64,000 nt of DNA from a virus (taxonomy: Duplodnaviria > Caudoviricetes), in the IMG/VR virus record IMGVR_UViG_3300010346_001536. One strand, written 5' to 3'. Of the stretch, positions 3,123-46,788 are shown in pieces (position 1 is the stretch's first letter; each line of letters opens with the position of its first letter). The notes under the pieces are model-generated. The model was not told the DNA's origin. It saw only the letters and a program-made list of their open reading frames with translations, and searched no databases. The position numbers and the translations under genes were made by a program.

Positions 3123-4220
3123 ATGAGTAATAAATTGATTCCATCAATTTTAACTATTATTCCTAAGATTCCGCTTAAAGGGGTATATTATATTGGCCAG
3201 TATGGAACAAGTGGATATGCAAATGCTGCCCGGGGGTATTTATATCATTATTTTATTAATAATATTCCTATTACATGGGACCCCCTTTATTTTGATAATT
3301 CTAAACTAAGTGATGATAATCCATACGATATAGTTGTTCAATCATTAATAAATAAATCAATTCCTCTACATGATGTTGTTATTATACATTCTACCCCCGA
3401 CTTATGGCCAAAATTTTGGGAAGAAAAACTTGAAATTTTAAAGGGAAAAGTTATTAATGGTTATTGTACTTGGGAAACAAATCGTCTTCCTAAAGAATGG
3501 GTTAAATATATGAATGAATGTGTTAATGAAGTATGGTGCCCGTCTTCTTATAATTTAAATTCATTCCGAGAATCGGGAGTAAATAATACTATACGAGTAG
3601 TACCGCATATTTTTCTTCCTCATCCTCTCCCTGACCCGATGAATGTTAAACTAGTTGATATGCGGACCGGAAATCGATTAGAAAAAAATGGATACTATAC
3701 GTTTTATACGATAGGAGAGTTTAATATACGTAAAGGAATTGAGGATACAATACGGGCTTTTTGTGAAGGATTTAAACCTACCGACCCAGTACGGCTTATA
3801 CTTAAAGTTCATTATCGTAATTATTCGGATGAAAATAAGAAAAGATGTGAAGATATGATTAAGGAAGAACTTAAAAAATATCCTTCTTATCCTCCTATTA
3901 TTTGTTTATTAGAACCGATGACTTCAACTGAGATTCTTGCCCTCCATTCAATAGGCGACTGTTACGTGTCGCTTACAAAGGCCGAGGGGTTTGGGCTTAC
4001 TATATTCGATGCCTTTAACTATGGGAAAAACATTATTGCTACGGGCTATGGTGGGCACATTGATTTTTTGGGAGATTCGTATCCCGGCCTTGTTCACTAT
4101 AAAATAGGGCCAGTGGTAGGAATGTCAACTTTTTCTTCGAACTATACTGAGGAACAGTTGTGGGCCTATCCATGTCTTGACCATGCAATTAACCTAATGA
4201 AAAAACAAGCTAACTTATGA
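3123..4220 (+). CDS. GT-B (GT4-like) glycosyltransferase
   Basis: SGY..AAR start, TWET, RKG, EGFGLTIFDA, IATGYGGHIDF. Confidence 0.9.
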   Translation: MSNKLIPSILTIIPKIPLKGVYYIGQYGTSGYANAARGYLYHYFINNIPITWDPLYFDNSKLSDDNPYDIVVQSLINKSIPLHDVVIIHSTPDLWPKFWEEKLEILKGKVINGYCTWETNRLPKEWVKYMNECVNEVWCPSSYNLNSFRESGVNNTIRVVPHIFLPHPLPDPMNVKLVDMRTGNRLEKNGYYTFYTIGEFNIRKGIEDTIRAFCEGFKPTDPVRLILKVHYRNYSDENKKRCEDMIKEELKKYPSYPPIICLLEPMTSTEILALHSIGDCYVSLTKAEGFGLTIFDAFNYGKNIIATGYGGHIDFLGDSYPGLVHYKIGPVVGMSTFSSNYTEEQLWAYPCLDHAINLMKKQANL

Positions 4221-4867
4221 CTGGAATTTTTGCATTTAATGGAAACACTAAGCATCAACAAATTATAGATACTTACATAAAGCGACTAGCAATAGATACG
4301 GTAGTCGAGTCGGGCACTTTACATGGTTTCACCACTGCGTATTTTGCCGAGCGAGTGAAGGAAGTGTACACCGTTGAAATTCAGGAAAAATCATATCGAA
4401 TGGCACGGAATTTACTCAGACAGTTTCGTAACGTTCATCAGGAACTTGGCGCTTCCCCCGCTTACTTCAATACGCTTCTGCCGACTCTTGATGGGAGAAA
4501 GATTCTGTTTTACCTTGACGCTCATTGGTTTGAGCCGTGGCCTCTGTTCGAAGAAATGAATGCCATTGCCAAGCACATCGGAAAACGGGCTGTAGTACTA
4601 ATTGACGACTTCCAGGTTCCCAACAGTCGATGTCGGTTTGACCAGTATGGCGGGGTAATAAACAATTTTGCCACATCCGAACCATACTTCAATAAGATTT
4701 ATGGGGAGCGGGGGTATGTGTATGATTATTTGGGCGGCGATGCAACACAGGAATTTATTATTAACGAATCGGAATTGGACTCCGACACTCTTCCTTTTTA
4801 TCTTCAGAGTTACAAGGGTAAGCCGATTACCATTACTGGAAAAATTATCGTCTATGCAAAAGAATAA
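4217..4867 (+). CDS. class I SAM-dependent methyltransferase-like protein
   Basis: VESGT.HG.T, YTVEI, FYLDAHW, LIDD. Confidence 0.8.
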   Translation: MTGIFAFNGNTKHQQIIDTYIKRLAIDTVVESGTLHGFTTAYFAERVKEVYTVEIQEKSYRMARNLLRQFRNVHQELGASPAYFNTLLPTLDGRKILFYLDAHWFEPWPLFEEMNAIAKHIGKRAVVLIDDFQVPNSRCRFDQYGGVINNFATSEPYFNKIYGERGYVYDYLGGDATQEFIINESELDSDTLPFYLQSYKGKPITITGKIIVYAKE

Positions 4868-5510
4868 ATATGTGTCCCAATGTGGGCAGGACAAGTGTGT
4901 CATTGAGGAAATTTACAAAGGATTGACGCATGGGTTTTTTGTTGACTTGGGAGCGGGCGATGGTATCCAATTGTCAAACACCTATGTCCTTGAAACGGAA
5001 TATGAATGGGATGGTATTTGTGTAGAACCCAACACTTATTCCTTTGAAAGCCTTAAGAAAAATCGAAAGTGTCGACTCGAAAACAGCTTCGTGCTTGATG
5101 GGGTGAGAGAAGTCGCGTTCCATCAGTACTATGGAAACCCGCCCCATTGGGAATCCTTCTCGTCAATGTATCCTTCGCCATTTCACGAAGAGATGGACGT
5201 CGTAAAGAAATCCGTTATCATGTGTAAGTCTATATCATTGGGACAGTTACTAACAAAGCATGGCGCACCGAATTTGATTCATTATCTTTCTGTGGACACC
5301 GAATATACGGACTACGAAATTCTCGAACACTTCTTCACAAAAGAACTTGGCGAAAGAGCTATCATATGTTTATCGGTGGAACACAACTTCAAGGAAGTTC
5401 GAGAGAAGCTTAGGACTTTGCTTGGAACTTATAGATTTACTTTCTATAAGGAACTGTATCAGGATGATATGTATATAAATAATGACTTTTGGAATCTTCC
5501 CAATCTATGA
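4854..5510 (+). CDS. FkbM-family methyltransferase
   Basis: SQCGQD, FFVDLGAGDG..LSNT..LE, GICVEPN, YLSVDTE; start placed at ATG 4854. Confidence 0.9.
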   Translation: MQKNKYVSQCGQDKCVIEEIYKGLTHGFFVDLGAGDGIQLSNTYVLETEYEWDGICVEPNTYSFESLKKNRKCRLENSFVLDGVREVAFHQYYGNPPHWESFSSMYPSPFHEEMDVVKKSVIMCKSISLGQLLTKHGAPNLIHYLSVDTEYTDYEILEHFFTKELGERAIICLSVEHNFKEVREKLRTLLGTYRFTFYKELYQDDMYINNDFWNLPNL

Positions 5511-6433
5511 ACGTCCATCTCCGAATAAACTATGGGTGTGATAAACGATTCTACCTTACGAAGGACACTATCCGCCTTTGTCATCCATACTTTGAGACTA
5601 TCAGGGTTTTGGTAACGTCCGACGAATCTGACTATCAAATGTTGAAGTCGTTGGAATCGGAGTATCCGAAGCTGAAGGTCACGAAGACGGCCATTCCTTA
5701 TTACGGGGATTTTGAATCCGTGCATCGAAATCTATTGTGGGATGTCCCCGAGGACGAGTGGATTCATTTGCTAGATTCAGATGAACGTCCAACCTATCAA
5801 TTTTTGACTGGCTTGCAGGACATGATATCCGACGCCATAGCAAATGGAGTTAACACATGTCGTATTCCATCCATTTCACATTACATGAAGTCAAATGAGT
5901 TTTGTGATAAGAATTATAAGAACGCTTTTGCGGGAAAGGCTAAGTACTATGAGCCATCTTTATTTAAATACAATAGGTATAAGAACACGTACAGAAGCAG
6001 CTTTGGTGGGTGTCATTCCATGCCAGCAAGGATAGATAGGGTGGAGAAGAGATATATCTTACCAACATTACACTTCAAAAATCCTATAAATTGGTATCAG
6101 GCGTTTATCCTACAGGGGTTTTTCAATCCAACTGTTCATTCGCGGACGGAAGAGCGAGAATGTCTCATAAAGTCTTCAGAATACGCCGCGTTTGAGGCAT
6201 TGAAAAAGGAAACAAAATGTTTTGATTCAACCACATTTATATCCCAGCTGTCTATCGACCCCGAGTTCAAGCAGAAATTTCATGACCTTTTTTTAACTTT
6301 TAAGGAGTCTAAATTTCCAATTTTCCAGTTTGCATACAAATGGGTTGCTAATGAGAATTTCAGACTAATGATTTTTGAAAAGCAGGAATTCTGCGGAAAG
6401 GTCTGTTGTAAGTATGGGGATATACAATTATGA
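5507..6433 (+). CDS. GT-A (GT2-like) glycosyltransferase
   Basis: F..HRN, W..LLDSDE DxD motif; ATGA overlap with the upstream gene. Confidence 0.7.
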   Translation: MNVHLRINYGCDKRFYLTKDTIRLCHPYFETIRVLVTSDESDYQMLKSLESEYPKLKVTKTAIPYYGDFESVHRNLLWDVPEDEWIHLLDSDERPTYQFLTGLQDMISDAIANGVNTCRIPSISHYMKSNEFCDKNYKNAFAGKAKYYEPSLFKYNRYKNTYRSSFGGCHSMPARIDRVEKRYILPTLHFKNPINWYQAFILQGFFNPTVHSRTEERECLIKSSEYAAFEALKKETKCFDSTTFISQLSIDPEFKQKFHDLFLTFKESKFPIFQFAYKWVANENFRLMIFEKQEFCGKVCCKYGDIQL

Positions 6434-7491
6434 AAATACTAATGACGTTTGAACTCGGAGCAATTGCTGTTTATGCAACGCCGCTGATAAAGTTATTGTC
6501 CTCTCGGGGGCATTCTATAGATTTTTATACAACCGACCGAAGAGGATTTTGTGACCCCGGAGACGAGATACGTAAATCTGTCACCATGCTCAATGCTCCT
6601 CCTGTAGATATGAGATATGATTTGTGGATGTATGACCTATCTACATGGGAAACAAAACAAACTCCATTTCTGGAAAAGCTTACGGAGTTCGAAGGAGACT
6701 TAGTATGCATCAATTTTGAAGATGGAAATCAATTCTTTCTTAATTATATTACGGGGTACATCATTGACAAGACAAAGCTATACATAAATAATTCTCTTTT
6801 TGTGGACCGGGGAAGATACCCCGAAAATATACGGTCTAAACTCATGTTGGCCCCGTCCTACATAACCAATAGTCAGAGTTTCAAGACATTGGTTGTTCCC
6901 TTCAGGGACAAGCAAAGGCGAGCCATATTTACAGGAAATATTACGGGAATGAGCGAAAGTGGAAATCCCGAAGAACTTAAATGTCGAATCCTTGTTCCAA
7001 TGGCGTTGATAAAGGCGGGCGTGCCTTGCTACTACCGTATCTATTCTTCCGACCCCAACTACCAGAGCGTCTTGGAAAAGGTGCCCGAGCAATATAAGAG
7101 TCAGCATCTTAAATGGGAAGACTTCTTGAAAGAAACAGTGAACAGTATGATTGTCCTCTCATTGAGGGGAAATGGTCATACAGTTCGGAGATACTTTGAG
7201 GGGCTGGCTTCGGGCGGATTGGTATTCTCCACGAGGTCAAATCATATGACTGAGTTCATTGGTCAGGGTGTAGCGGGAGAGCACTTCGTAGAAATAGACT
7301 GGTCGGGGAACGATGTGGTTGAGAAGGCCAATTACTATTTCGAGCGCACCGAGGAGGCCGAAAAAATTGCTGCTTGTGGAAGAAAGTTTTGGGAAGACAC
7401 TAGTATGTTGGATGACAATGGGGTGGTTCCTCCGAAGGTTGCGAACGAAATAATCAACAACGCCAAACGAATTGCGGGGATTGAATTTTGA
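6430..7491 (+). CDS. GT-B glycosyltransferase-like protein (GT90/CAP10-like C-terminus)
   Basis: AIFTG, LSLRGNG..RYFE, HFVEI...D, AEKIA..GRKF. Confidence 0.65.
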   Translation: MKILMTFELGAIAVYATPLIKLLSSRGHSIDFYTTDRRGFCDPGDEIRKSVTMLNAPPVDMRYDLWMYDLSTWETKQTPFLEKLTEFEGDLVCINFEDGNQFFLNYITGYIIDKTKLYINNSLFVDRGRYPENIRSKLMLAPSYITNSQSFKTLVVPFRDKQRRAIFTGNITGMSESGNPEELKCRILVPMALIKAGVPCYYRIYSSDPNYQSVLEKVPEQYKSQHLKWEDFLKETVNSMIVLSLRGNGHTVRRYFEGLASGGLVFSTRSNHMTEFIGQGVAGEHFVEIDWSGNDVVEKANYYFERTEEAEKIAACGRKFWEDTSMLDDNGVVPPKVANEIINNAKRIAGIEF

Positions 7492-8213
7492 TGTTTACCA
7501 AATTCACAATCTATGGGGAAAGGTGTTCTGGCACTAACTTTTTACGCAAGGTTATTGTTGATAATTTTAACCTTGAACTAACACATCTTCCTAATGTAGA
7601 TTATGCGTGGAAACACTTTTTCGGACATGAGAAAAATCAAGCGGCCATTCAGAGTTCAACAGACGTAGTGATTTTATCAATAGTTAGAAATCCGATTGAC
7701 TATTTCGTATCTTTTTTCAAGTCGCCCCACCATCAGTCAGCGGAAAGAATTGTGGACTTTGAAACCTTTCTGACTTCGGAATTCTACTCTATAAATAAAG
7801 AAGGAGAACTTCTTACGGATAGGTATTTTGAGCAGAATTGTCGAAGGTATAAGAACATCTTCGAGATGCGTGCTGTAAAGAATCGATTTCTTGCACTTAC
7901 TATTCCAAAACTTACTGCAAATTGTTATTTAGTGCAATATGAAAGATTGAAGAATGATTCGGAAGCGGTGCTCGTTGAAATTTCAGCTAAGTTTAGGCTT
8001 ACTCCCAAGCAGCAACCATTTATTATAGAAAGACGAAGGGTTGCTCCTCGAGGGACAAGTTGGGATGTATTTGATATTGTGGATTCTCCTATAGGCGAGA
8101 ACTACGTAGTGGAATCTCCGAAATGCAAGGAAATCATCCTTTCCAATTTGGATTTTTCGGCCGAACGAATTGTTGGATACATCCGCGAATCTATTGTAAG
8201 CCGTCTAATATGA
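7491..8213 (+). CDS. sulfotransferase-like protein
   Basis: IYGERCSGTNFL (5'-PSB-like), WKH, IVRNPIDYFVS (3'-PB-like), VQYERL. Confidence 0.7.
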   Translation: MFTKFTIYGERCSGTNFLRKVIVDNFNLELTHLPNVDYAWKHFFGHEKNQAAIQSSTDVVILSIVRNPIDYFVSFFKSPHHQSAERIVDFETFLTSEFYSINKEGELLTDRYFEQNCRRYKNIFEMRAVKNRFLALTIPKLTANCYLVQYERLKNDSEAVLVEISAKFRLTPKQQPFIIERRRVAPRGTSWDVFDIVDSPIGENYVVESPKCKEIILSNLDFSAERIVGYIRESIVSRLI

Positions 8214-9325
8214 GTGATAAAATTCAAAAAGTATATGAATTGGTTCGAGATTATGTAAATAAATCTGAATATTGCGGGAGGGTATTTATTTTTGGAGGAT
8301 ATATTAGAGACCGCATTATTGGCATTATACCTAATGATATAGATGCTATCTTAGTTGGAGATACTGAAGATGCTATGAAATTAGCAATGAAATTGGTATC
8401 GGAAACTAAAGATATGGAAACTAGAAATCTTCCCGTCAAAATTAATAATGCCATTCGTTTTTATATTAATGATGTAAGAATTGATATTACTTCTCTTCCG
8501 CCGATAGAAGGGGGAACACCCCGGGATGTTATGTGCCACGCGGCAATTTATCACCGCGATTTTGCTATCAACGGGATGTGTTTGAATTTAGAAAATGAAG
8601 AAGTTTTTGATGGGTCTGGGAGCTCTATAAAAGCCATTTTTCAAAGAAGTTTAGTAACTGCTAGAGATGATTATGATTCAATTTTTTATAATCATCCTGC
8701 TCGATTATATCGTATGTTTAGATTACAATCTAAACTTAATTTGACTATTCCGGAATCTCAAATTGAATATGCAAGATATAAGTGGTGGTTAAGTAATTTT
8801 GTCGAACGAGATAGAATTAAAATAGAATTTGACCAAATTAAACAGGGGCCAAATGCAAAAAAATTTTTAGAATTATTAAAATATGCTAAATTAGACCCAA
8901 CCGATTTATCAAGGGGCGATGTATTTATTCAAGATGGGTGGCATGAGTGTGAGCCGGGACAAGAACCAAAACGATATCGAGAAGGACTTCATACTCGATG
9001 GACCAGTCCAAAAGCAAATCTTTTAATATCCCCATCAGTAGATGCAATCGAATTAATATATTTTAAATCGGAACATGCTAAATCTGATATATTGTATTAT
9101 ACAATAAATGATAAAGAGGACAAAATTCCGCTTGGACCTACATCTGTTATCATTCCCACCGCTGGAGGGGGTCGTTTAACTATACGTACAAATACTTTTA
9201 GACCTTCAGACGTATTTGAATCTGACGATACTCGAGAATTAGGACTTTATGTATCTAAAATTAATATATTTAAATTGGGAATTAAAACTGAAATTTTAAT
9301 AGATTACATTCCATATCATTTATGA
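8210..9325 (+). CDS. CCA-adding/poly(A) polymerase-family nucleotidyltransferase fused to a C-terminal beta-sandwich ('SDxRxLG') domain
   Basis: GGYIRD..DID and RDFAIN motifs; C-terminal GWH.E..RWT..DTRELG; start at ATG 8210. Confidence 0.8.
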   Translation: MSDKIQKVYELVRDYVNKSEYCGRVFIFGGYIRDRIIGIIPNDIDAILVGDTEDAMKLAMKLVSETKDMETRNLPVKINNAIRFYINDVRIDITSLPPIEGGTPRDVMCHAAIYHRDFAINGMCLNLENEEVFDGSGSSIKAIFQRSLVTARDDYDSIFYNHPARLYRMFRLQSKLNLTIPESQIEYARYKWWLSNFVERDRIKIEFDQIKQGPNAKKFLELLKYAKLDPTDLSRGDVFIQDGWHECEPGQEPKRYREGLHTRWTSPKANLLISPSVDAIELIYFKSEHAKSDILYYTINDKEDKIPLGPTSVIIPTAGGGRLTIRTNTFRPSDVFESDDTRELGLYVSKINIFKLGIKTEILIDYIPYHL

Positions 9326-10575
9326 ATATAGACCATCAAGATGTTGTACTAATACGAACTGCTGATAGCCATTGGTGGAAACTCGAAGGAAATATTAAAG
9401 ATGGATTTTTTCGATGGACCGCTGAACGAGCAGATTTTCGAATTATTAATCAAAATATAAAATCAGTAGAAATTCAACTTCAATGGCATCCAACTTATTG
9501 TGGAACTATTATTATAAAACAAGATGGAAAAGAATTAATATCTTATAACCCGAATAATTTGCCAGAGCATAATATTAAAATAGATATTAAAAATCAAAAA
9601 GATTTTGAAATATATTGTAATACATTTGTACCGAATAAAGTAAATAATTCGTCCGATTTTCGGAACTTAGGAATAATGGTGAGAGGATTTGTTTTACATG
9701 TAGAGAACGAGTCGTATCAATTAAAAATGAATGACATTTCTGAATGGTTCCCTATAATAGAAATTGTCAAAGAAAAAATTTCCAATGAAGTATTAACTAT
9801 TGCACCATTTAATTATACTTCTACACCCTTTAATATTTCTACACCATTAAAACGAGGCGCAATACTTTATTTAGATAAAACTTATCCGCGAATTATAAAA
9901 CAACTTAAAGAAGATTATAAATTTAGTAAATCTTGTGAATTAATTACTTATACGGATAATTCTTCTGTAGAAGCCGATATTCATGTACCTGTATTTGAAG
10001 GACAATGGATGAAAAAATATGATTATGCTAATGTGGCAGCACAAATGGCAATACAAATTGCTCAATTCAAAGAGTGGGATTATTTTATGTGGTTGGAATG
10101 GGATTGTTACGTAGGAAAGGATTGTTGGTTTGATGTTTTATGGGAAGAATTACTAGCATGGCCATATAAGCCTATACAGGCGGGAACTCCTGTAATATCA
10201 ACTTGGCCAATAGATGGTAATTTTGAATTTATAAAACAAGATTATATTGCTTCTTATCTTAAAGCAAATAAAGCAAGTTTGCGTTCAATTTATGTTGAGT
10301 TAATGGCTATAGCAATTAACGGAGCATTTGGATTTTATGAAGTAAATATGGCAGATAAATATTTAGTAAAACAAAAAATTCCTCGTGCTTGTCCGTTTGA
10401 TTTTATGTTTGGCCTTCGTATGTTAGAGGAATACCAAGAAGATATTTTTAAACATACGGCATGGCTTCCTTCATTGTATTCGGTATATGGAAATCAATAT
10501 TATACGGAAGCCCAGCGTTTAGAAATGGTTAAGTCTGGATTCAAAGTAGCTATGCATCAGTATAAGGTAATATAA
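9322..10575 (+). CDS. N-terminal 'SDxRxLG' beta-sandwich domain plus GT-A-like domain
   Basis: WW.LE..RWT..SSDFRNLG; YFMWLEWDC (ExD), INGA.GFY. Confidence 0.55.
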   Translation: MNIDHQDVVLIRTADSHWWKLEGNIKDGFFRWTAERADFRIINQNIKSVEIQLQWHPTYCGTIIIKQDGKELISYNPNNLPEHNIKIDIKNQKDFEIYCNTFVPNKVNNSSDFRNLGIMVRGFVLHVENESYQLKMNDISEWFPIIEIVKEKISNEVLTIAPFNYTSTPFNISTPLKRGAILYLDKTYPRIIKQLKEDYKFSKSCELITYTDNSSVEADIHVPVFEGQWMKKYDYANVAAQMAIQIAQFKEWDYFMWLEWDCYVGKDCWFDVLWEELLAWPYKPIQAGTPVISTWPIDGNFEFIKQDYIASYLKANKASLRSIYVELMAIAINGAFGFYEVNMADKYLVKQKIPRACPFDFMFGLRMLEEYQEDIFKHTAWLPSLYSVYGNQYYTEAQRLEMVKSGFKVAMHQYKVI

Positions 10576-10649: not shown

Positions 10650-11252
10650 ATGAGAAAACATTCAATTAAAGAAAATTCATTCGATGCTGCTCCCGGTGGT
10701 GCCGCCGGGGCTATTACTTATCAAACTCCATATGGAACTCCCTTTGGCCCTAATCAGACTCAAAACCCAGACCATTTTGAGAGTGATAATATACATAAGG
10801 AGACGGAAATGTCTAAACTGGGGATTACAGATGAAGATTTAGAAGAACTTTATTCTATTTCGGGCAAAACTCCTCCTACTCCGGATGAAATTATTTCGGG
10901 CCTTCAATATGAATTAAGTCAGCAAACTAAAAAGAATCCGGAAGAAGCCAAACAACAAGTTATTGCTAATCTTCGAAAAAATACTAAATTTTATAGTGAA
11001 TTAAATCATCTTAACGTTAACGATAAAGCAATGGTAGATAATATGGATATAAAAGAACAATCTTATGAATTTAGACATCCTAATGACCCCGCTAAAAGAT
11101 TTTCAGTTAATTTAAATATAGAAGAAACGAAAAAAATTTTTAATGATATGGCCAAAGAAAAGGATAATAAATATGCCACAAATCCTCAAATTAGTGATGT
11201 GATGAAAGAAATGTGGACAGCTAAAAAGTCTCGTAAATTGTGGAAACCTTAA
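10650..11252 (+). CDS. hypothetical protein, probable late/virion protein
   Basis: TATTTATA at 10639-10646; G..YE..Q/NL..N..FYS.L motif seen in jumbo-phage proteins. Confidence 0.65.
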   Translation: MRKHSIKENSFDAAPGGAAGAITYQTPYGTPFGPNQTQNPDHFESDNIHKETEMSKLGITDEDLEELYSISGKTPPTPDEIISGLQYELSQQTKKNPEEAKQQVIANLRKNTKFYSELNHLNVNDKAMVDNMDIKEQSYEFRHPNDPAKRFSVNLNIEETKKIFNDMAKEKDNKYATNPQISDVMKEMWTAKKSRKLWKP

Positions 11253-11262
11253 AATATAATTA

Positions 11263-11874
11263 ATGCCAGCAGCAGCGTCAATACCTCCCACTTTGACAAC
11301 TGTGCCTTCGAATTTTAATGCACAGTCTTCCGGCAATGTTTCTTTTGACCATGAATATTTTTATGTAAAATATAATGGATGGAGACGATTTCCTCTCGTA
11401 CGTACTCAAAATTTATCTTTTGGATTTCCCGACCCTTCCCATGAAGGAAACATTTATACGGATAATCAATATTTTTATTTAGTTGTTAATCACCAATGGA
11501 AAAAATTTCCAATTTTTATTATAAAACCCCGCCGCCCTATTATGGGAAAAGTTCCTATGATAAATATTCAAGAAACAAAATTAACTACTTTTCCTAGTGG
11601 AACTGATAATTATGGTAGATGGGGTATGATTTCTTTTAATAATGAGTATTTTTGTATATGGGGACAAGGAAAATGGCACAAAATTCCTATAACTCGGATG
11701 CCTAAATTTCGTTCTAAAGAAGTGAAAATGAAAATTAATATGGATTCTTCACCTGAAGATACTCCAGTTGTTAATATGGAGAATCCGCCCCAAGGAAATA
11801 TTATATTGAATATTGGACTTATTTCTGAAAATCCACCCCAAGGAAATATTACATTGAATGTTGGACTTATATAA
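11263..11874 (+). CDS. fibre-like protein with three G-x-I-x-x-D/N-x-x-YF...W-x-R/K-x-P repeats
   Basis: GNVSFDHEYFYV..GWRRFP, GNIYTDNQYFYL..QWKKFP, GMISFNNEYFCI..KWHKIP. Confidence 0.65.
   Translation: MPAAASIPPTLTTVPSNFNAQSSGNVSFDHEYFYVKYNGWRRFPLVRTQNLSFGFPDPSHEGNIYTDNQYFYLVVNHQWKKFPIFIIKPRRPIMGKVPMINIQETKLTTFPSGTDNYGRWGMISFNNEYFCIWGQGKWHKIPITRMPKFRSKEVKMKINMDSSPEDTPVVNMENPPQGNIILNIGLISENPPQGNITLNVGLI
11779..11871 (+). repeat. 48-bp tandem duplication encoding ENPPQGNIxLNxGLI twice
   Basis: Near-identical copies start at 11779 and 11827. Confidence 0.9.
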
Positions 11875-11877
11875 TAT

Positions 11878-12300
11878 ATGAATCCTTTATATGAAAAAGC
11901 AAAAGATTTAGTTCTTGTTAGAAGAACTTCAGATAATAAAGAATTTGAAGAGTATCCTTTATTTGTTCAACCCCAATCGGTTTTAATGACTGACCCGGCT
12001 AATAATGTTATTTGTATTAGTGCATGTTCTCTTCATGTTGCTTTTGCTGTATCTGCTTCTTATTCCGCTACTAGTTCATTTGCTTGGTATGCCTTAAGTT
12101 CTTCATATGCAAATAGTGCATCTTATGTAATAAGTTCTTCATATGCTTATAGTGCCTCATATGCTTATACCGCGTCTTATGCGCTTGAAGCCTCTTCTGC
12201 TCTTTTTGCTAATACTGCGTCTTATCTTAGATTATGGGATAATGAATTAAATAGATGGGTATATATAGAATCACATGGAGGCGTATTAAGTGTAATATAA
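11878..12300 (+). CDS. SASYA-repeat probable structural protein
   Basis: Run of 6-aa S-A/S-S-Y/F-A repeats. Confidence 0.7.
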   Translation: MNPLYEKAKDLVLVRRTSDNKEFEEYPLFVQPQSVLMTDPANNVICISACSLHVAFAVSASYSATSSFAWYALSSSYANSASYVISSSYAYSASYAYTASYALEASSALFANTASYLRLWDNELNRWVYIESHGGVLSVI

Positions 12301-13693: not shown

Positions 13694-15820
13694 ATGGATA
13701 GAGTTCCTCGTACTTTTTGTATTACCCTTCGGGAAACACCGAAGCGTCAAGAAGCAGCCCAGAAATATTTTAAAGAAATCAACTGGCCAGTTGAATTTTT
13801 TAAAGGTATTCATGGAAAATCTTTTGGATTAAAATCAACAATTCCTAATTATAATAAACTTCCTGGGCGAGAATATTTTATAACTCAAGGGGCTATAGGG
13901 TGTTTATTATCTCATTTAATGTTATGGAATGTTTTAATTTATCAACCAGAAGATGAATTTTTAATTTTAGAAGATGATATAAAATTAGCCGATGATTTTT
14001 CAGATAGATATAAAAAATTTCGAAAAGAATTGCCCGATGATTGGCAAATAGTATATCTTGGTCATCTTATTCCGGGAGGTTTAAAAGAAAAAGGGATTAT
14101 TCATATTTCAGAAAATGTTATGGTTTGTAAGCCAATGTGTACTCATGCTTATATGGTTAAAAAATCCGCCCTTAAAACTTTAATTGAAACGAATCAATTA
14201 GCATGGAGTCCTCTTGATATTCAAATTATAGAGCGTTCATTGCCAAAATTAAAACACTATGCTGTAAAAGACCCTCTTATTACTCAGCGGTCTGTACTTA
14301 ATATTAAAGATGTGACGTGGTATTCATTATGTTATGATTGGGATTTAAATCCTGAATGGGTAACAGATAAAAGTAGCAATATAAGGTTGGGGACGGGTTG
14401 GCATCCATTAGAAAAGAATGATGAAGGATATATGATTTGGACCGATGGTCGGGGGGAATTTTTATTTGATGATAAATGGCAAAAAATGAATATTGAATTT
14501 ATTGCCGAAGGAGAAATAGAGAAAAAAATTAGAATAGTTTGTCCTCAGCAACCAGACCAGATAATTGACTTGTCAAATTATGGAAAAAATAGTATAAATG
14601 TTTCTATTCAAGGAGCCAAATCAGTTATTCTTGTTTCAGATACATTTCGACCCGTTGATATTTTTAAAACAAGTGATAGTAGAAGATTGGGAATTCGATT
14701 ATTAAAAGGAATTACTCTTACTGATTCCGAAGGAAAATCTACTTTTGTAAGTTTATATTCAATGTATGGGGCTAAAAAAGTAGATGAAATGTCTAATATT
14801 AAGGGAATTAAAATGGCTAAGATTCGTTATAGCCATGAGGATGGAAAAATTAATCTCCGAGGACAGTATTCTTATAATCATCATCGTTCAGGATGGGGAT
14901 TTGTTTTGGATTTGTTAGCCGATTATCACCGAGACGATGCACCCGTTATGGATTCTTGGATTGAAAGGACTTTTGCTTGGGACAAGATTAAAAATTCTCA
15001 GTTGCGACTCATACCCTATCGAGAACCGTGGGCTGGTATTTTTCACCACCCTCCTAACATGCCAACGTGGTTTAGTGATTTAGCTACACCTTATGCTATT
15101 ATCAATAGCCAAGAATTCCAAGATAGCTTACCAATGTGTAAAGGTCTCTATACGCTTTCAAAATATCATGCCGATTTTGTAAAATGTTTTATTAAAAATA
15201 TTCCGGTAGAAGTATTATATCATCCCACAGAAATTCCTCAAGTTAAATTTAGCTTTGAAAATTTTATTGCCAATAATAACAAAAAAGTTATTAATATTGG
15301 TTATTGGCTTCGAAAACTAACTTCCATTTATCAATTAGATATTGACCAAGGCATATATCAAAAAATACGTTTACTACCCGCCAGCTCTTGGGTACCATCA
15401 AGTACAATTGAAAGAATTTTAAATATTGAAGTCGAATTTTGTAAAAAAACATTCACTGATAATATGAAACGGTCAGTTATTGATGTGCGACATATGTCAA
15501 ATGAAGATTATGATGGACTGCTTTCTAAAAATATAGTTTTTATAGATTTATATGATGCCAGTGCAAATAATTGTATTATTGAATGTATGGTGCGCGGAAC
15601 TCCCATTCTTGTTAATCCATTACCTGCGGTAGTTGAATATCTTGGCGTTAATTATCCGTTTTATTTTTCTAATTTAGAAGAAGCGGCGAATAAACTTAGA
15701 AATTTTGAACTTATTAAAGATACAAATGAATATTTAAAGCAACCAGAAATTTTTGAGAAAGTAACGTCCGAATATTTTCTTAAAATTATACGAGAAAGTA
15801 AAATTTGGAAATCTTTATGA
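13694..15820 (+). CDS. multidomain glycosyltransferase: GT25 + 'SDxRxLG' beta-sandwich + GT-B-like domain
   Basis: GAIGCLLSH, LILEDD, DW..VYLG, CTHAY; middle SDSRRLG; C-terminal DASANNCIIEC..RGTP. Confidence 0.85.
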   Translation: MDRVPRTFCITLRETPKRQEAAQKYFKEINWPVEFFKGIHGKSFGLKSTIPNYNKLPGREYFITQGAIGCLLSHLMLWNVLIYQPEDEFLILEDDIKLADDFSDRYKKFRKELPDDWQIVYLGHLIPGGLKEKGIIHISENVMVCKPMCTHAYMVKKSALKTLIETNQLAWSPLDIQIIERSLPKLKHYAVKDPLITQRSVLNIKDVTWYSLCYDWDLNPEWVTDKSSNIRLGTGWHPLEKNDEGYMIWTDGRGEFLFDDKWQKMNIEFIAEGEIEKKIRIVCPQQPDQIIDLSNYGKNSINVSIQGAKSVILVSDTFRPVDIFKTSDSRRLGIRLLKGITLTDSEGKSTFVSLYSMYGAKKVDEMSNIKGIKMAKIRYSHEDGKINLRGQYSYNHHRSGWGFVLDLLADYHRDDAPVMDSWIERTFAWDKIKNSQLRLIPYREPWAGIFHHPPNMPTWFSDLATPYAIINSQEFQDSLPMCKGLYTLSKYHADFVKCFIKNIPVEVLYHPTEIPQVKFSFENFIANNNKKVINIGYWLRKLTSIYQLDIDQGIYQKIRLLPASSWVPSSTIERILNIEVEFCKKTFTDNMKRSVIDVRHMSNEDYDGLLSKNIVFIDLYDASANNCIIECMVRGTPILVNPLPAVVEYLGVNYPFYFSNLEEAANKLRNFELIKDTNEYLKQPEIFEKVTSEYFLKIIRESKIWKSL

Positions 15821-24177: not shown

Positions 24178-25383
24178 ATGAATATAAATGGAGAATGTGA
24201 AGTTATGAAAATATTAAGTATAGAAGAAGCAAAATCTTATGCTATGGGAAAAATCGTTGTTATTGTGACTGGAGTGACTGGTCAAGACGGAAGTTTTATG
24301 TCAGATTATTTACTGAAAAATACTTCTTATGAAATATTTGGAGGAGCTAGAAGATTAAGTGTTTCGAATCATGATAATATAAAACATTTAGAAAATGAAC
24401 CGAGATTTCATCTTATCAATTTTGATTTAACAGATGCACATTCTATTTCACAAATTGTTAGCCAACTTAAACCAGCATACTTTATTAATTTTGCAGCCCA
24501 ATCTTTTGTGAAATCTTCATGGGATTTTCCTGCTCAAACGTGGGATACTAATACTAAGTCTATTATTCATATACTTGAATCCATTCGACTTCATTGTCCA
24601 ACATGTCGATTTTATAACGCTGGAAGTTCTGAGGAATTTGGAGATGTACTTTATAATCCACAGGACGAAAAACACCCGATTCGACCTCGTAGTCCATATG
24701 GTGCTTCAAAAGCTGCAGCTAGACAATTGGTTAAAGTATATCGAGATTCCTATAGTTTATATGCAATTCAAGGATGGCTTTTTAATCACGAAGGTACACG
24801 GCGCGGCGAGGAATTTGTAACTAGGAAAATTACAAAATCTGTGGCTCGTATTGTAAAGGAATTAAAAAAAGGAACCGAAGTTGTCCCCCTCGAACTTGGA
24901 AATTTAGAAGCTAGCCGAGATTGGACAGATGCGGAGGATTGTGTGGAAGCCGTGTGGCGTATGCTTAATCAAGATATTTTTGATACATATATTGCAAATA
25001 TGATTTTAACAGATAATAAAGGAGATTATCTTACTAGTGAAACATATTTAAAGGCTATTATACCATATATTAAAGAATACGTTGTATCTTCTGGAGAAAC
25101 GCACAGTGTAAAAAGATTTGTAGAACTTGCTTTTCAAGTTGCAGGAATTGAAGGACATTGGGAAGGAAGCGGAATTGATGAGAAGTATATTTTGGGTAAA
25201 ATAAATAATTCCGGGCCTATACTTGTAAAAATTAATCCTGCTTTTTATCGTCCGGCAGAGGTGGATTATTTACGCGGAAATCCATCCCGTATTAAAAAAA
25301 GGCTGGGTTGGAGCCCTCAATCGTCTTTTAAACAACTCGTAGTAAAGATGGTTAATAAAGATATTTTAATTAATTCGAAATAA
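24178..25383 (+). CDS. gmd: GDP-mannose 4,6-dehydratase
   Basis: TGVTGQDG, AAQSFV, SSEEFG, SPYGASK, FNHE..RRGEEFVTRKIT, RPAEV. Confidence 0.95.
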   Translation: MNINGECEVMKILSIEEAKSYAMGKIVVIVTGVTGQDGSFMSDYLLKNTSYEIFGGARRLSVSNHDNIKHLENEPRFHLINFDLTDAHSISQIVSQLKPAYFINFAAQSFVKSSWDFPAQTWDTNTKSIIHILESIRLHCPTCRFYNAGSSEEFGDVLYNPQDEKHPIRPRSPYGASKAAARQLVKVYRDSYSLYAIQGWLFNHEGTRRGEEFVTRKITKSVARIVKELKKGTEVVPLELGNLEASRDWTDAEDCVEAVWRMLNQDIFDTYIANMILTDNKGDYLTSETYLKAIIPYIKEYVVSSGETHSVKRFVELAFQVAGIEGHWEGSGIDEKYILGKINNSGPILVKINPAFYRPAEVDYLRGNPSRIKKRLGWSPQSSFKQLVVKMVNKDILINSK

Positions 25384-39419: not shown

Positions 39420-40955
39420 ATGAAAAAAGTAAAAAATATACAGGGGAAAACGAAATATGTTCCATCTTCCAATGCTTTCATTCAAGGCATGACTAATGCT
39501 TGTAATGTGGCTTATACCGAAAACGCAGCTATTACTAATAAGTCCACTTTATCTGATACTTTAGATTGGTTTGGGGCTGGGGGAGCGTTGCGTCAGCGAA
39601 ATTCTGAGGAAATCATCAGCCTTTTCTCTCGCGCTTTTGCCGAAGACCAGCTTTTGGCATTGAAAATTCTTTTCTATTTGCGCGATGTACGAGAAGGACA
39701 GGGAGAGCGCAATACATTTCGTATTATTATCAACTGGCTAGCACAACATTATCCAGAAGTAATCCGAAAAAATTTAGAACACATTCCTTTTTATGGCCGA
39801 TTTGATGATTTGTATTCTTTAGTAGGTACTTCGCTAGAAAACGAAATGTTTAAATTTATTGCACAGCAATTAAAAACGGATTTTCGTAATATGAAGAGGG
39901 GAAAATCTGTTTCTTTGTTGGCTAAATGGGCTAAGAGTGAAAATACTTCTTCTGATGAATCAGTCAAACTTGGTCGTAAAACCCGCGAGGCTCTTAAACT
40001 TTCTCCAAAGCGTTATCGAAAGATTCTTTCTTCTCTTAGAAATTATATTAATGTCGTTGAAACAAAGATGTGTTTGGGAAAGTGGGGTGAAATTAATTAT
40101 GAAGGAGTTCCTTCTAAGGCTTCTTTAAATTATCGTAAAGCGTTTGGCCGGCATGACCAAGAACGTTATGCTAGTTATTTAGAATCTGTTAAGAAAGGAG
40201 ATTCTAAAATTAATGCAGATGCTATATTTCCATATGAAATTTTTCGTTCGCTTGTAAAAAATCCAGAATGTAAAATTACGCCGTCGGCACAAGAAATTTT
40301 GCAGGCCGATTTACAGTGGAAATCTATGCCCAATTGGATGGGGAATAATGAACACAAAGGCATTGTTATTGCTGATTGTTCAGGGTCTATGTATACTGGC
40401 ATTCCCAATATTTTTGTGGCGGTATCTCTTGCAATTTACTTTGCCGAACGTAATGTAGGTCCTTTTAAAAATGTTTGGATGACCTTTTCAACCCATCCTT
40501 CATTTCAAAAATTGAAGGGACAAAATCTATATGAAAAATATTTAAATATAGATAGGAACGACTGGGGAGTATCAACCAATCTCCAGTCATCATTTGACCT
40601 TATTTTAAAGACGGCGGTGAAAGCGTCCGTTCCCCCCGAAGATATGCCAGAAGTATTGTATATTATTTCTGATATGGAATTTGATTGGGCGTGTAAAGAC
40701 AATACAAAGACAAATTTCCAAGTAATGAGAGAAAAGTATGAAACCGCCGGATATAAATTGCCGCGTGTAGTGTGGTGGAATGTTGACGCTCGCAATAGCA
40801 ATTACCCAATTCGAGCAGATGATACGGGTACCTGTTTGGTTTCGGGATGCTCACCGAGCATCTTGAAGACCGTAATGAGTTCGAAGATTATGGACCCAAT
40901 CAGTATTATGCTTTCAACTGTAAATATTCCTCGTTATGAGCGTATTGCCGTTTAA
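39420..40955 (+). CDS. DUF2828-family TROVE/Ro60-like protein with C-terminal vWA domain
   Basis: TENAA, FYLRDVREGQGER..F, YGRFDDL, SLLAKW, YRK.LS.LR, VVE.KM, ADCSGSM (MIDAS), STNL, ISDMEFD, VWWNV, VSG.SP. Confidence 0.9.
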   Translation: MKKVKNIQGKTKYVPSSNAFIQGMTNACNVAYTENAAITNKSTLSDTLDWFGAGGALRQRNSEEIISLFSRAFAEDQLLALKILFYLRDVREGQGERNTFRIIINWLAQHYPEVIRKNLEHIPFYGRFDDLYSLVGTSLENEMFKFIAQQLKTDFRNMKRGKSVSLLAKWAKSENTSSDESVKLGRKTREALKLSPKRYRKILSSLRNYINVVETKMCLGKWGEINYEGVPSKASLNYRKAFGRHDQERYASYLESVKKGDSKINADAIFPYEIFRSLVKNPECKITPSAQEILQADLQWKSMPNWMGNNEHKGIVIADCSGSMYTGIPNIFVAVSLAIYFAERNVGPFKNVWMTFSTHPSFQKLKGQNLYEKYLNIDRNDWGVSTNLQSSFDLILKTAVKASVPPEDMPEVLYIISDMEFDWACKDNTKTNFQVMREKYETAGYKLPRVVWWNVDARNSNYPIRADDTGTCLVSGCSPSILKTVMSSKIMDPISIMLSTVNIPRYERIAV

Positions 40956-45918: not shown

Positions 45919-46788
45919 ATGAGCTTAAGGGATGAATTATATTGTAATAAAGTAGATAGAGACTATATTAAATTAATAAACCGTGTCCTTGAAGAGGGAC
46001 AAAGGAAAAAGAATAGAACGGGTGTAGATACTTTTAGTATATTCGGAGCTATGCTTCAATTTGATATGTCCGAAGGATTTCCCCTTCTTACTACAAGGAG
46101 ACTTCCTTTTAAGTCCACTAAAGTAGAATTAGAAGGTTTTATTAAAGGGATTACTGATAAAAAGTGGTATCAAGAACGAGGATGCCATTATTGGGATGAA
46201 TGGTGTAATCCTGTTAAAGTTCCATATGGACATGATAAAGATACTTTGGCCAAAATGAAAAATGAAAGGGACTTAGGTAAAATATATGGGTATCAATGGA
46301 GAAATTTTAATTCCAGTGGTTATGACCAACTTAAAAAAGTCGTAGATACTCTTAAAAGTAATCCTGCTGATAGAAGAATGCTTGTAACGGCGTGGAATCC
46401 ATGTGAATTGAATCAAATGGCACTTCCACCTTGTCATTTCTGGTGGATGGTTGGGGTTGAAGGCAGTCGTTTAAATTTAGCATGGGGACAGCGAAGCGTG
46501 GACTGTGTGTGTGGACTCCCCGCCAATATTTCGTCCTATGCTTTACTTTTACATTTATTGGCAAAAGAGGCGGGGCTTGAGGAAGGAATCTTGACGGGTC
46601 AATTTGTAGATACTCATATCTATGTTAATCATCTTGATAATCTTAAAATACAACAACAAATATTACCGAAATCTTTGCCCACAATAAAAACCGAAAAATT
46701 TACTTCGATTTTTGAATGGTCTCATGAAGATACAAAACTTATTGGATATGACCCCCATCCAAAATTGGATTTTGAAATTGCAGTTTAA
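45919..46788 (+). CDS. thyA: thymidylate synthase
   Basis: NRTG..T, FPLLTT, LG.IYG.QWR, RRM..AWNP, MALPPCH, QRSVD...GLP.N, DTHIY.NH. Confidence 0.97.
   Translation: MSLRDELYCNKVDRDYIKLINRVLEEGQRKKNRTGVDTFSIFGAMLQFDMSEGFPLLTTRRLPFKSTKVELEGFIKGITDKKWYQERGCHYWDEWCNPVKVPYGHDKDTLAKMKNERDLGKIYGYQWRNFNSSGYDQLKKVVDTLKSNPADRRMLVTAWNPCELNQMALPPCHFWWMVGVEGSRLNLAWGQRSVDCVCGLPANISSYALLLHLLAKEAGLEEGILTGQFVDTHIYVNHLDNLKIQQQILPKSLPTIKTEKFTSIFEWSHEDTKLIGYDPHPKLDFEIAV

Follow-up and report, generated by a model that had tools for sequence, protein, structure and literature searches.

What does a protein with the core of a tRNA nucleotidyltransferase do among the glycan-modifying genes of a tailed phage? This question is raised by the gene at positions 8210-9325 of the window analysed here, a stretch of 64,000 nucleotides that corresponds to bases 64010-128009 of the 138,305-bp IMG/VR record IMGVR_UViG_3300010346_001536 (CheckV completeness of 39%; the window is AT-rich, with a G+C content of ~32%). 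The product of this gene, designated P0001, consists of a nucleotidyltransferase (NTase) head and neck followed by a beta-sandwich module. We read P0001 and its relatives as a phage-specific, re-purposed offshoot of the class II tRNA nucleotidyltransferase/poly(A) polymerase (PAP) family, and we tentatively assign them, at somewhat less than even confidence, as glycan-directed transferases of a nucleotidyl or a phospho group. The gain of a module common with the neighbouring glycosyltransferases, and the loss of the parts that serve tRNA binding and base reading, suggest that P0001 probably acts on the glycan pathway of the phage rather than on tRNA.

The relationship of the N-terminal part of P0001 to CCA-adding enzymes is indicated by searches of several kinds. 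Residues 26-143 match the Pfam PolyA_pol head (PF01743; E 2.3e-8, 34.9 bits with a cut-off of 23), the protein matches PHROG 2244 (tRNA nucleotidyltransferase; E 3e-16), and phmmer aligns residues 25-228 to CCA-adding enzymes of the Protein Data Bank (PDB). The AlphaFold2 (AF2) model of the full protein (pLDDT 95.3, pTM 0.89), when compared to the PDB with Foldseek, retrieves CCA-adding, A-adding, and PAP enzymes (E ~1e-12, ~235 columns), and hhalign pairs residues 11-233 of the profile of the nine-member family described below with four canonical CCA+HD enzymes (probability 99.6, E 7.7e-24). An ATG at 8123 would lengthen the reading frame; the start at 8210 is favoured because the homologues begin at the same position. 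An earlier reading of this stretch from its nucleotides alone (referred to here as the original prediction) had described the gene as encoding a CCA-type enzyme with intact GGYIRD..DID and RDFAIN motifs and with the sequence FYNHPARLYR at the position of motif D. Both catalytic motifs are indeed present in the translation (motif A between G29 and D45, HRDFAIN at residues 115-121). The register of motif D, which the original prediction had left to alignment and structure prediction, is confirmed by phmmer, hhalign, and the Foldseek comparison of the AF2 model, which agree with each other.

Motif D of class II CCA-adding enzymes contains the amino acid template EDxxR that reads CTP and ATP (PMC2910056). 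In the phmmer alignment, the canonical F-L-E-D-P-L-R-I-L-R is paired with FYNHPARLYR of P0001, and in the hhalign alignment F-S-D-D-P-L-R is paired with F-Y-N-H-P-A-R. The possibility that EDxxR aligns elsewhere in the protein was rejected, as both alignments fix the register at NHPAR and direct reading of the P0001 translation revealed no other [ED][ED]xxR. Losses of other motifs are also apparent. The BxA motif, which is located upstream of the flexible loop and has been implicated in primer positioning (PMC2910056), is represented in canonical enzymes by R-K-E just after the strand that corresponds to the D92 strand, and hhalign places a gap of the family profile opposite these residues. 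The DxxRRD of motif B, which recognises ribose (PMC2910056), reads A-I-Y-H-R-D in P0001; only D117 and F118 of this motif are invariant in the family, and the distant clade has T, S, or C in place of R116. Past residue 235, the AF2 model of P0001 is an all-beta domain. No Pfam match to PolyA_pol_RNAbd or tRNA_NucTran2_2, which represent the tRNA-binding body and tail, was found in P0001, and the HD domain is absent, unlike in canonical CCA+HD enzymes; the canonical relatives P0005-P0008 bear PF12627, PF01966, and PF13735. The best score of P0001 against the NCBIfam CCA equivalogs (NF009814, TIGR02692, NF009811, and NF008137) is 34.1 bits with a cut-off of 290, and its score against PcnB (TIGR01942) is 31.3 bits with a cut-off of 305.65.

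In comparison with class II CCA-adding, A-adding, and PcnB enzymes (PF01743; PDB 6QY6, 3H37, 1MIV, 3WFS, and 3AQK), P0001 has the same head and neck fold. Motifs A and E are common to both, as are the third carboxylate and, in motif D, the R of EDxxR and the R..R after it. P0001 keeps a Pol-beta two-metal centre (D43, D45, and D92) and the neck helices for nucleotide phosphates (R165, R168, R171, and motif E). It has lost the ED base template, BxA, most of motif B (DxxRRD is cut to RD or D), and the tRNA-binding body and tail, in place of which there is a beta-sandwich. Since the template, BxA, motif B, body and tail, and the equivalog scores all depart from those of CCA-adding enzymes, P0001 is, judged by its sequence, a member of the PF01743 superfamily that lacks most of the features by which CCA-adding enzymes are defined, and it is very unlikely to be an ordinary one. 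The original prediction noticed the change in motif D and overlooked the larger ones, namely, the deletion of BxA, the decay of motif B, and the replacement of body and tail by the beta-sandwich.

Word-indexed searches of 5.8 billion proteins returned three full-length relatives of P0001 (99%, 42%, and 40% identical). To assemble the family, 1.84 billion representatives were searched exhaustively, using HMMER with the profile of the C-terminal module; the N-terminal profile was then used in a local search. The family comprises nine clusters at 50% identity, all with proteins of 354-383 aa and of identical two-domain order. In the phylogenetic tree, support for its separation from canonical CCA+HD enzymes is 100/100, and it divides into two clades. 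On this basis the family is small and monophyletic, and it is phage-restricted wherever the gene context is readable. Residues invariant in the nine-member alignment are G29, G30, R33, D43, and D45 of motif A (9/9 representatives), D92, D117, F118, F159, P163, R168, R171, and E206. Members are 26-43% identical, and the three acidic residues, GG-x-x-R, and the neck arginines are nonetheless invariant, which argues for selection on catalysis. The positions of the ED template behave differently: they read NH, CF, GF, SF, RL, QY, TY, SY, and SS in the nine members, only the R of EDxxR is mostly kept, and seven of the nine members have an aromatic or hydrophobic residue at position 162, where canonical enzymes have Asp. 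Because the ED positions are under no shared constraint, the template is, as far as the alignment indicates, lost rather than rewritten. Thus, the absence of ED claimed in the original prediction stands, and the notion of a new, altered templating motif does not, as these positions are unconstrained in the nine representatives.

The module (~135 aa) stands where the tRNA-binding body and tail would be, and its AF2 model, when predicted alone, is also all-beta (pLDDT 90.3). An extra, conserved loop, CEPGxEPxR, is specific to the NTase copies of the module; this loop and the high pTM of the full model suggest that the NTase part and the module are in a fixed interdomain arrangement. The original prediction had seen the same C-terminus in two neighbouring glycosyltransferase-like proteins. 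BLASTP bears this out: residues 236-371 of P0001 match the N-terminus of the product of the open reading frame (ORF) 9322-10575 (E 1e-5) and residues ~205-345 of the protein encoded at 13694-15820 (E 5e-9), which is assigned to glycosyltransferase (GT) family GT25 (Pfam Glyco_transf_25, E 2.4e-21, residues 7-166). A profile search indicates that there are exactly three copies of the module in the whole 138-kb record. The same profile retrieves 277 representative clusters at E <= 0.001. Among the 107 of them that were scanned with Pfam, fusion partners include GT25 (9), GT1 (5), and radical SAM/SPASM (5) proteins, as well as several methyltransferase families, GT2, GT8, GH130, Wzy_C, OpgC, and Acyl_transf_3. 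Judged by these partners, the module appears to accompany almost entirely enzymes that build or decorate polysaccharides.

Among known domains, the nearest to the module appears to be DUF7024 (PF22895), the C-terminal domain of OpgB-type phosphoglycerol transferase proteins, since the module profile retrieves DUF7024 proteins. DUF7024 is matched directly by 5 of the 107 scanned module proteins; P0042 and P0055 score above its cut-off, and in P0055 the regions matched by DUF7024 and by the module profile overlap. In a feature search of the ESM Atlas with the module, the second match was a DUF7024 cluster named phosphoglycerol transferase I. Ten single-domain relatives of the module gave one marginal DUF7024 match only (P0139), the module copies of the window have no direct match to PF22895 or any other Pfam family even with E relaxed to 10, and searching all six frames of the record for DUF7024 gave nothing. 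Foldseek comparison of the isolated module to the PDB gave nothing at E <= 0.001. In VIA-align, with 48,161 chains, the top matches are carbohydrate-binding modules (CBMs) of family 35, with Z of 6.0-6.7, a range that may reflect a common arrangement only (best match: Z 6.7, root-mean-square deviation 3.6, 101 aligned residues). Other neighbours are the CBM-like domains of CE2 and other carbohydrate esterases, Ape1, AftD, and glycoside hydrolases. The module of the window is modelled as a jelly-roll beta-sandwich, the fold expected of CBM35-type modules, and its NTase copies add the CEPGxEPxR loop. Based on the profile matches via the intermediates P0042 and P0055 and on the Atlas feature match, we call the module a divergent DUF7024 relative with a CBM35-like shape. 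Structure searches of BFVD and the ESM Atlas with the full model matched the NTase half only and revealed no protein with both domains, and a full-text literature search found no paper on DUF7024.

The gene encoding P0001 belongs to a run of genes at 3123-10575, in the order GT1, two methyltransferases, an unknown gene, GT1-like, sulfotransferase-like, the NTase fusion, and a partner in which the module is joined to a GT-A-like domain; the overlaps within this run are mostly of four bases (Table 1). The ATGA overlaps with both neighbours that were reported in the original prediction are present in the sequence, at 8210-8213 and 9322-9325. The gene in the position orthologous to that of the sulfotransferase-like gene in the related phage locus L007 is a Sulfotransfer_1 gene. 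The GT-A-like domain of the partner matches GT2, GT6, Fringe, and TOD1 glycosyltransferases in the Atlas with TM-scores of ~0.5, based on a low-confidence Atlas model. E-W-D-C is an invariant motif of the partner family, in which a C-terminal H-x-Y-K is also present; its C-terminal domain recurs in longer relatives (597-839 aa), behind extra regions. The partner matches no family of Pfam, PHROG, or NCBIfam, and it probably represents an undescribed GT-A-like family. Complex prediction from the alignments of the NTase family and the partner gave a score of 0.00, under the 0.32 mark, and is used as evidence neither way.

Table 1. Coordinates of the NTase fusion gene, its motifs and domains, and associated features in the window
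Feature	Positions	Strand	Basis and remarks
Eight same-strand, mostly overlapping genes	3123..10575	+	ORF coordinates, Pfam
Upstream coupled gene, P-loop sulfotransferase-like, 241 aa	7488..8213	+	Pfam Sulfotransfer_1, E 0.0013, below cut-off; ATGA overlap
NTase/beta-sandwich fusion gene (P0001)	8210..9325	+	371 aa; translation, Pfam, PHROG, AF2 model
Class II NTase head and neck	8210..8914	+	Residues 1-235; no body/tail domain follows
Motif A, G29 G30..R33 D34..D43-I-D45, two metal-binding carboxylates	8294..8344	+	Invariance in the family
D92, likely third catalytic carboxylate	8483..8485	+	Invariant in the family; paired by hhalign with canonical invariant E
Degraded motif B, H115-R-D-F-A-I-N121	8552..8572	+	Canonical DxxRRDFTIN
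Motif D position, F159-Y-N-H-P-A-R-L-Y-R168	8684..8713	+	NH in place of the ED template; register from phmmer and hhalign
Motif E-like helix, E199-R-D-R-I-K-I-E206	8804..8827	+	R202 and E206 paired by hhalign with canonical invariant R and E
Beta-sandwich module	8915..9322	+	Residues 236-371; W244..E248..W264..F330-x-P332..D340-x-R342-x-L344-G345
Translationally coupled partner, 417 aa	9322..10575	+	N-terminal module copy (9322-9741) and GT-A-like domain
Third module copy	14306..14728	+	Inside the 708-aa GT25 protein (gene 13694-15820); BLASTP and profile match

The order of the NTase fusion gene followed by the partner gene is kept in several relatives. In L007, which has the same flanking genes and a Sulfotransfer_1 gene beside, the two proteins are 42% and 54% identical to those of the window. 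In L010, they are 30% and 30% identical, with a GT1 gene upstream and a Sulfotransfer_2 gene downstream. In L009, the order is kept and the partner is partial. In L022, the overlapping downstream gene (424 aa) is read as the partner by size and position only, and genes for FkbM methyltransferases and three sulfotransferase genes are located nearby. The short contigs of P0021 and P0027 contain a downstream ORF of matching size or position, a probable partner. Thus, sulfotransferase genes adjoin the NTase fusion gene in L007, L010, and L022. In the distantly related L010 phage, the contig L014/G004:C1 (39,610 bp) contains the module in the NTase, the partner, a 523-aa GT1 protein, and a 321-aa ORF of the minus strand. 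In the tree, members with the partner occur in either clade, and the two that lack it branch from within them, so the linkage is probably ancestral. The connection of the NTase to glycan enzymes through a common domain, as proposed in the original prediction, is real and conserved.

The genes surrounding P0001 also differ in base composition and in conservation. The G+C content of the region 4300-7900 (methyltransferase, unknown, GT1-like, and sulfotransferase-like genes) is 0.40-0.45, as compared to 0.30-0.35 on both sides and 0.35 in the NTase gene, which suggests a more recent acquisition of part of the operon from a donor with a higher G+C content. Residues 1-126 of the sulfotransferase-like protein (ORF 7488-8213) are 58% identical to the N-terminus of a 434-aa protein of L007 (L007:1516-2820), the C-terminal part of which matches the separate GT1-like ORF 6430-7491 of the window; the two phages therefore differ by a split or reshuffling of domains. 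The ORFs 3' of the cluster (10650-12300 in the window; L007:7247-10482) are 72-88% identical in L007, as compared to 42-54% for the enzymes. One of them, ORF 11878-12300, is very rich in Ser, Tyr, and Ala. Possibly, the ORFs of 10650-12300 encode structural proteins, which would be candidate glycan acceptors.

In the mechanism that we propose, the module would bring the NTase, the GT-A-like partner, and the GT25 enzyme to one glycan acceptor, built by the cytoplasmic products of the glycosyltransferase, methyltransferase, and sulfotransferase genes. The NTase domain would use a nucleotide donor without base reading of the Watson-Crick type, and would put a nucleotidyl or nucleotide-activated phospho group onto a sugar hydroxyl of this glycan. 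Chemically, attack by a sugar hydroxyl would not differ from that by the 3'-OH of a terminal ribose. We infer the nature of donor and acceptor. In its full form, the proposal is that a tRNA CCA-adding lineage was converted in large phages to a glycan or glycoconjugate nucleotidyl- or phospho-group transferase, with the template discarded and a carbohydrate-module-like domain in place of the tRNA-binding half, and that phage glycans thus bear a nucleotide-derived or phosphodiester-linked decoration; this broader proposal we regard as doubtful.

The proposed chemistry has parallels. Aminoglycoside and lincosamide nucleotidyltransferases (ANT/Lnu) use a DxD centre of the Pol-beta type to put a nucleoside monophosphate (NMP) on a sugar hydroxyl, and the DxD centre of LicD, fukutin, and FKRP transfers a phospho-alcohol from a CDP-activated donor to a sugar hydroxyl. 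Both groups represent other branches of the superfamily than CCA/PAP enzymes; to our knowledge, none of them derives from the CCA/PAP head-neck unit or bears a DUF7024-like module, and none is among the matches listed in the sequence or structure searches of P0001. It is tentatively, with the glycan assignment as a whole, that we liken the reaction of P0001 to those of ANT and LicD/FKRP-type enzymes. A viral class II core without EDxxR is also present in the NT-BTB proteins of Pandoravirus, the base specificity of which was speculated by their authors to be lost (bioRxiv 10.1101/2023.12.02.569716). These proteins, likened here to P0001 by description, belong to a virus of eukaryotes, have BTB as the fusion partner, and have no glycan context.

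Several points weigh against the assignment of P0001 as a glycan-directed enzyme. We know of no class II nucleotidyltransferase that acts on a glycan, and a nucleotidylated glycan product is hypothetical. Carbohydrate binding by the module is suggested by its fusion partners and by middling structural scores (Z under 8), with no direct Pfam match. The retained R165, R168, R171, and motif E would suit an RNA primer, too. Moreover, in the widespread phage of P0004 (24 contigs), the fused gene is located between genes for a 5'-3' exonuclease and DnaB and adjoins gp32 and UvsX, and the fused gene of P0019 is located among small unknown ORFs; these two lineages have neither the partner nor a recognisable glycan cluster.

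The replication and recombination setting of P0004 would be in accord with an NTase that tails or repairs RNA 3' ends independently of a template and without base selectivity. The beta-sandwich would then be a newly gained domain for docking to RNA or protein, and the glycan genes would be neighbours by accident of T4-like early-region gene order. All of the nearest relatives of P0001 in sequence and structure are nucleotidyltransferases of tRNA or RNA, RNA repair enzymes of CCA type are common in phages (PMC7824862), a viral class II NTase domain without EDxxR has been suggested to have no base specificity (bioRxiv 10.1101/2023.12.02.569716), and the window contains a TROVE/Ro60-like gene. 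However, such an enzyme would act on RNA with the body and tail domains and the primer-positioning BxA motif gone, the domain that replaces them is found almost only on glycan-acting enzymes, and the linkage to the module-GT-A partner is kept in both clades. Weak side evidence against an RNA substrate is that ARAGORN found no tRNA or tmRNA genes in the whole 138,305-bp record and that most family members are not basic (isoelectric point of 5-7, i.e., neutral to acidic, in seven of nine, vs. >9 in three of four canonical enzymes). On balance, we consider an RNA-tailing function unlikely, but the main alternative.

The acceptor could also be a macromolecule of the phage itself, either a Ser/Tyr-rich virion protein, for which nucleotidylylation would be a modification or a primer of glycosylation, or glycosylated phage DNA. 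The proteins of the operon have, on direct reading, no obvious signal peptide or membrane segment, which fits decoration in the cytoplasm; the cluster is followed by the conserved Ser/Tyr-rich ORFs at 11263-12300; glycosylation of virions and DNA by phages is documented in references cited in PMC12619734; and P0004 lies in a DNA-metabolism block. Nothing direct, however, ties the Ser-rich proteins to the enzymes. DNA hypermodification was considered via the thymidylate synthase homologue at 45919-46788 (Pfam E 3.5e-87) and rejected: the Asn in its P-A-N-I-S-S-Y motif is of ThyA type, and the product looks like a true, ordinary ThyA and not a dCMP hydroxymethylase, and hydroxymethyl-pyrimidine DNA is thus not indicated by the available portion of the genome. 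An acceptor of this kind seems to us quite unlikely.

If, instead, the enzyme acted on small molecules, it would transfer NMP to a phosphate or sulfate acceptor and thereby provide an activated precursor, such as an NDP-sugar made from a sugar-1-phosphate or a donor similar to adenosine 5'-phosphosulfate (APS) for the adjacent sulfotransferases. The repeated location of sulfotransferase genes beside the NTase gene fits this, and so do the sugar-nucleotide tailoring enzymes encoded in the 138-kb record (e.g., GDP-mannose 4,6-dehydratase, 24178-25383), in which no sugar-1-phosphate nucleotidylyltransferase of the NTP_transferase type and no APS kinase was found. As the record is only 39% complete, the latter enzymes may be encoded elsewhere or supplied by the host. 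A module of polymer-binding type, common with glycosyltransferases, would not be expected for a small-molecule acceptor, and we know of no precedent for reactions yielding NDP-sugars or APS-like compounds in the class II CCA/PAP fold; thus, precursor synthesis is improbable. Finally, a catalytically dead scaffold, which would provide a multi-enzyme complex with module or nucleotide binding only, would agree with the decay of several specificity motifs but is made extremely improbable by the invariance of the acids, GG-x-x-R, and the neck arginines in so divergent a family.

Judged by the content of the window and by the T4-type genes (gp32, UvsX, gp19, and DnaB) on contigs that bear relatives of the NTase fusion gene, the source of the record is a large uncultivated tailed phage. 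The window encodes rIIA/rIIB-type proteins, a clamp-loader-like protein, an SNF2 helicase, a thymidylate synthase, an NAPRTase, and products of many sugar-pathway genes. No isolated phage has an rIIA more than 34% identical to the one encoded here, and tblastn of the NTase fusion protein against 50,697 phage records gave no match. A six-frame search of the record (G000) detected only one PF01743 gene (36.7 bits, above the cut-off). The TROVE/Ro60-like gene mentioned above, at 39420-40955, matches DUF2828/DUF7788 (E ~1e-45). In the phage with P0004, the gene for the ribonucleotide reductase large subunit (L003:13933-19164, 1743 aa) is interrupted by inteins with LAGLIDADG homing-endonuclease domains.

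Our literature search found no paper that describes an enzyme of CCA type within a glycan cluster. CCA enzymes as such are frequent in phages, and the loss of EDxxR has one speculative precedent; what is new here is a rare, phage-restricted re-tooling of the CCA/PAP core. Class II nucleotidyltransferases are the textbook case of an amino acid template that reads nucleotides without a nucleic acid template, and all characterised ones known to us act on RNA 3' ends. An enzyme that kept the catalytic engine, dropped the template, the primer motif, and the tRNA half, and joined a module of polysaccharide enzymes would clearly exemplify a change of substrate class in this fold, and such a switch appears well supported by the anatomy of P0001. 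Should the protein prove to be an unspecific RNA tailing enzyme, it would represent a minimal, template-free core of a CCA enzyme, useful for understanding how specificity is built. If P0001 is indeed glycan-directed, it would bring a new glycan decoration and a new enzyme activity into the glycobiology of phage surfaces and virions, and would provide the first functional handle on the widespread DUF7024-like module. Phage glycans would then owe a decoration to an enzyme class that has been known so far only for synthesising RNA 3' ends.

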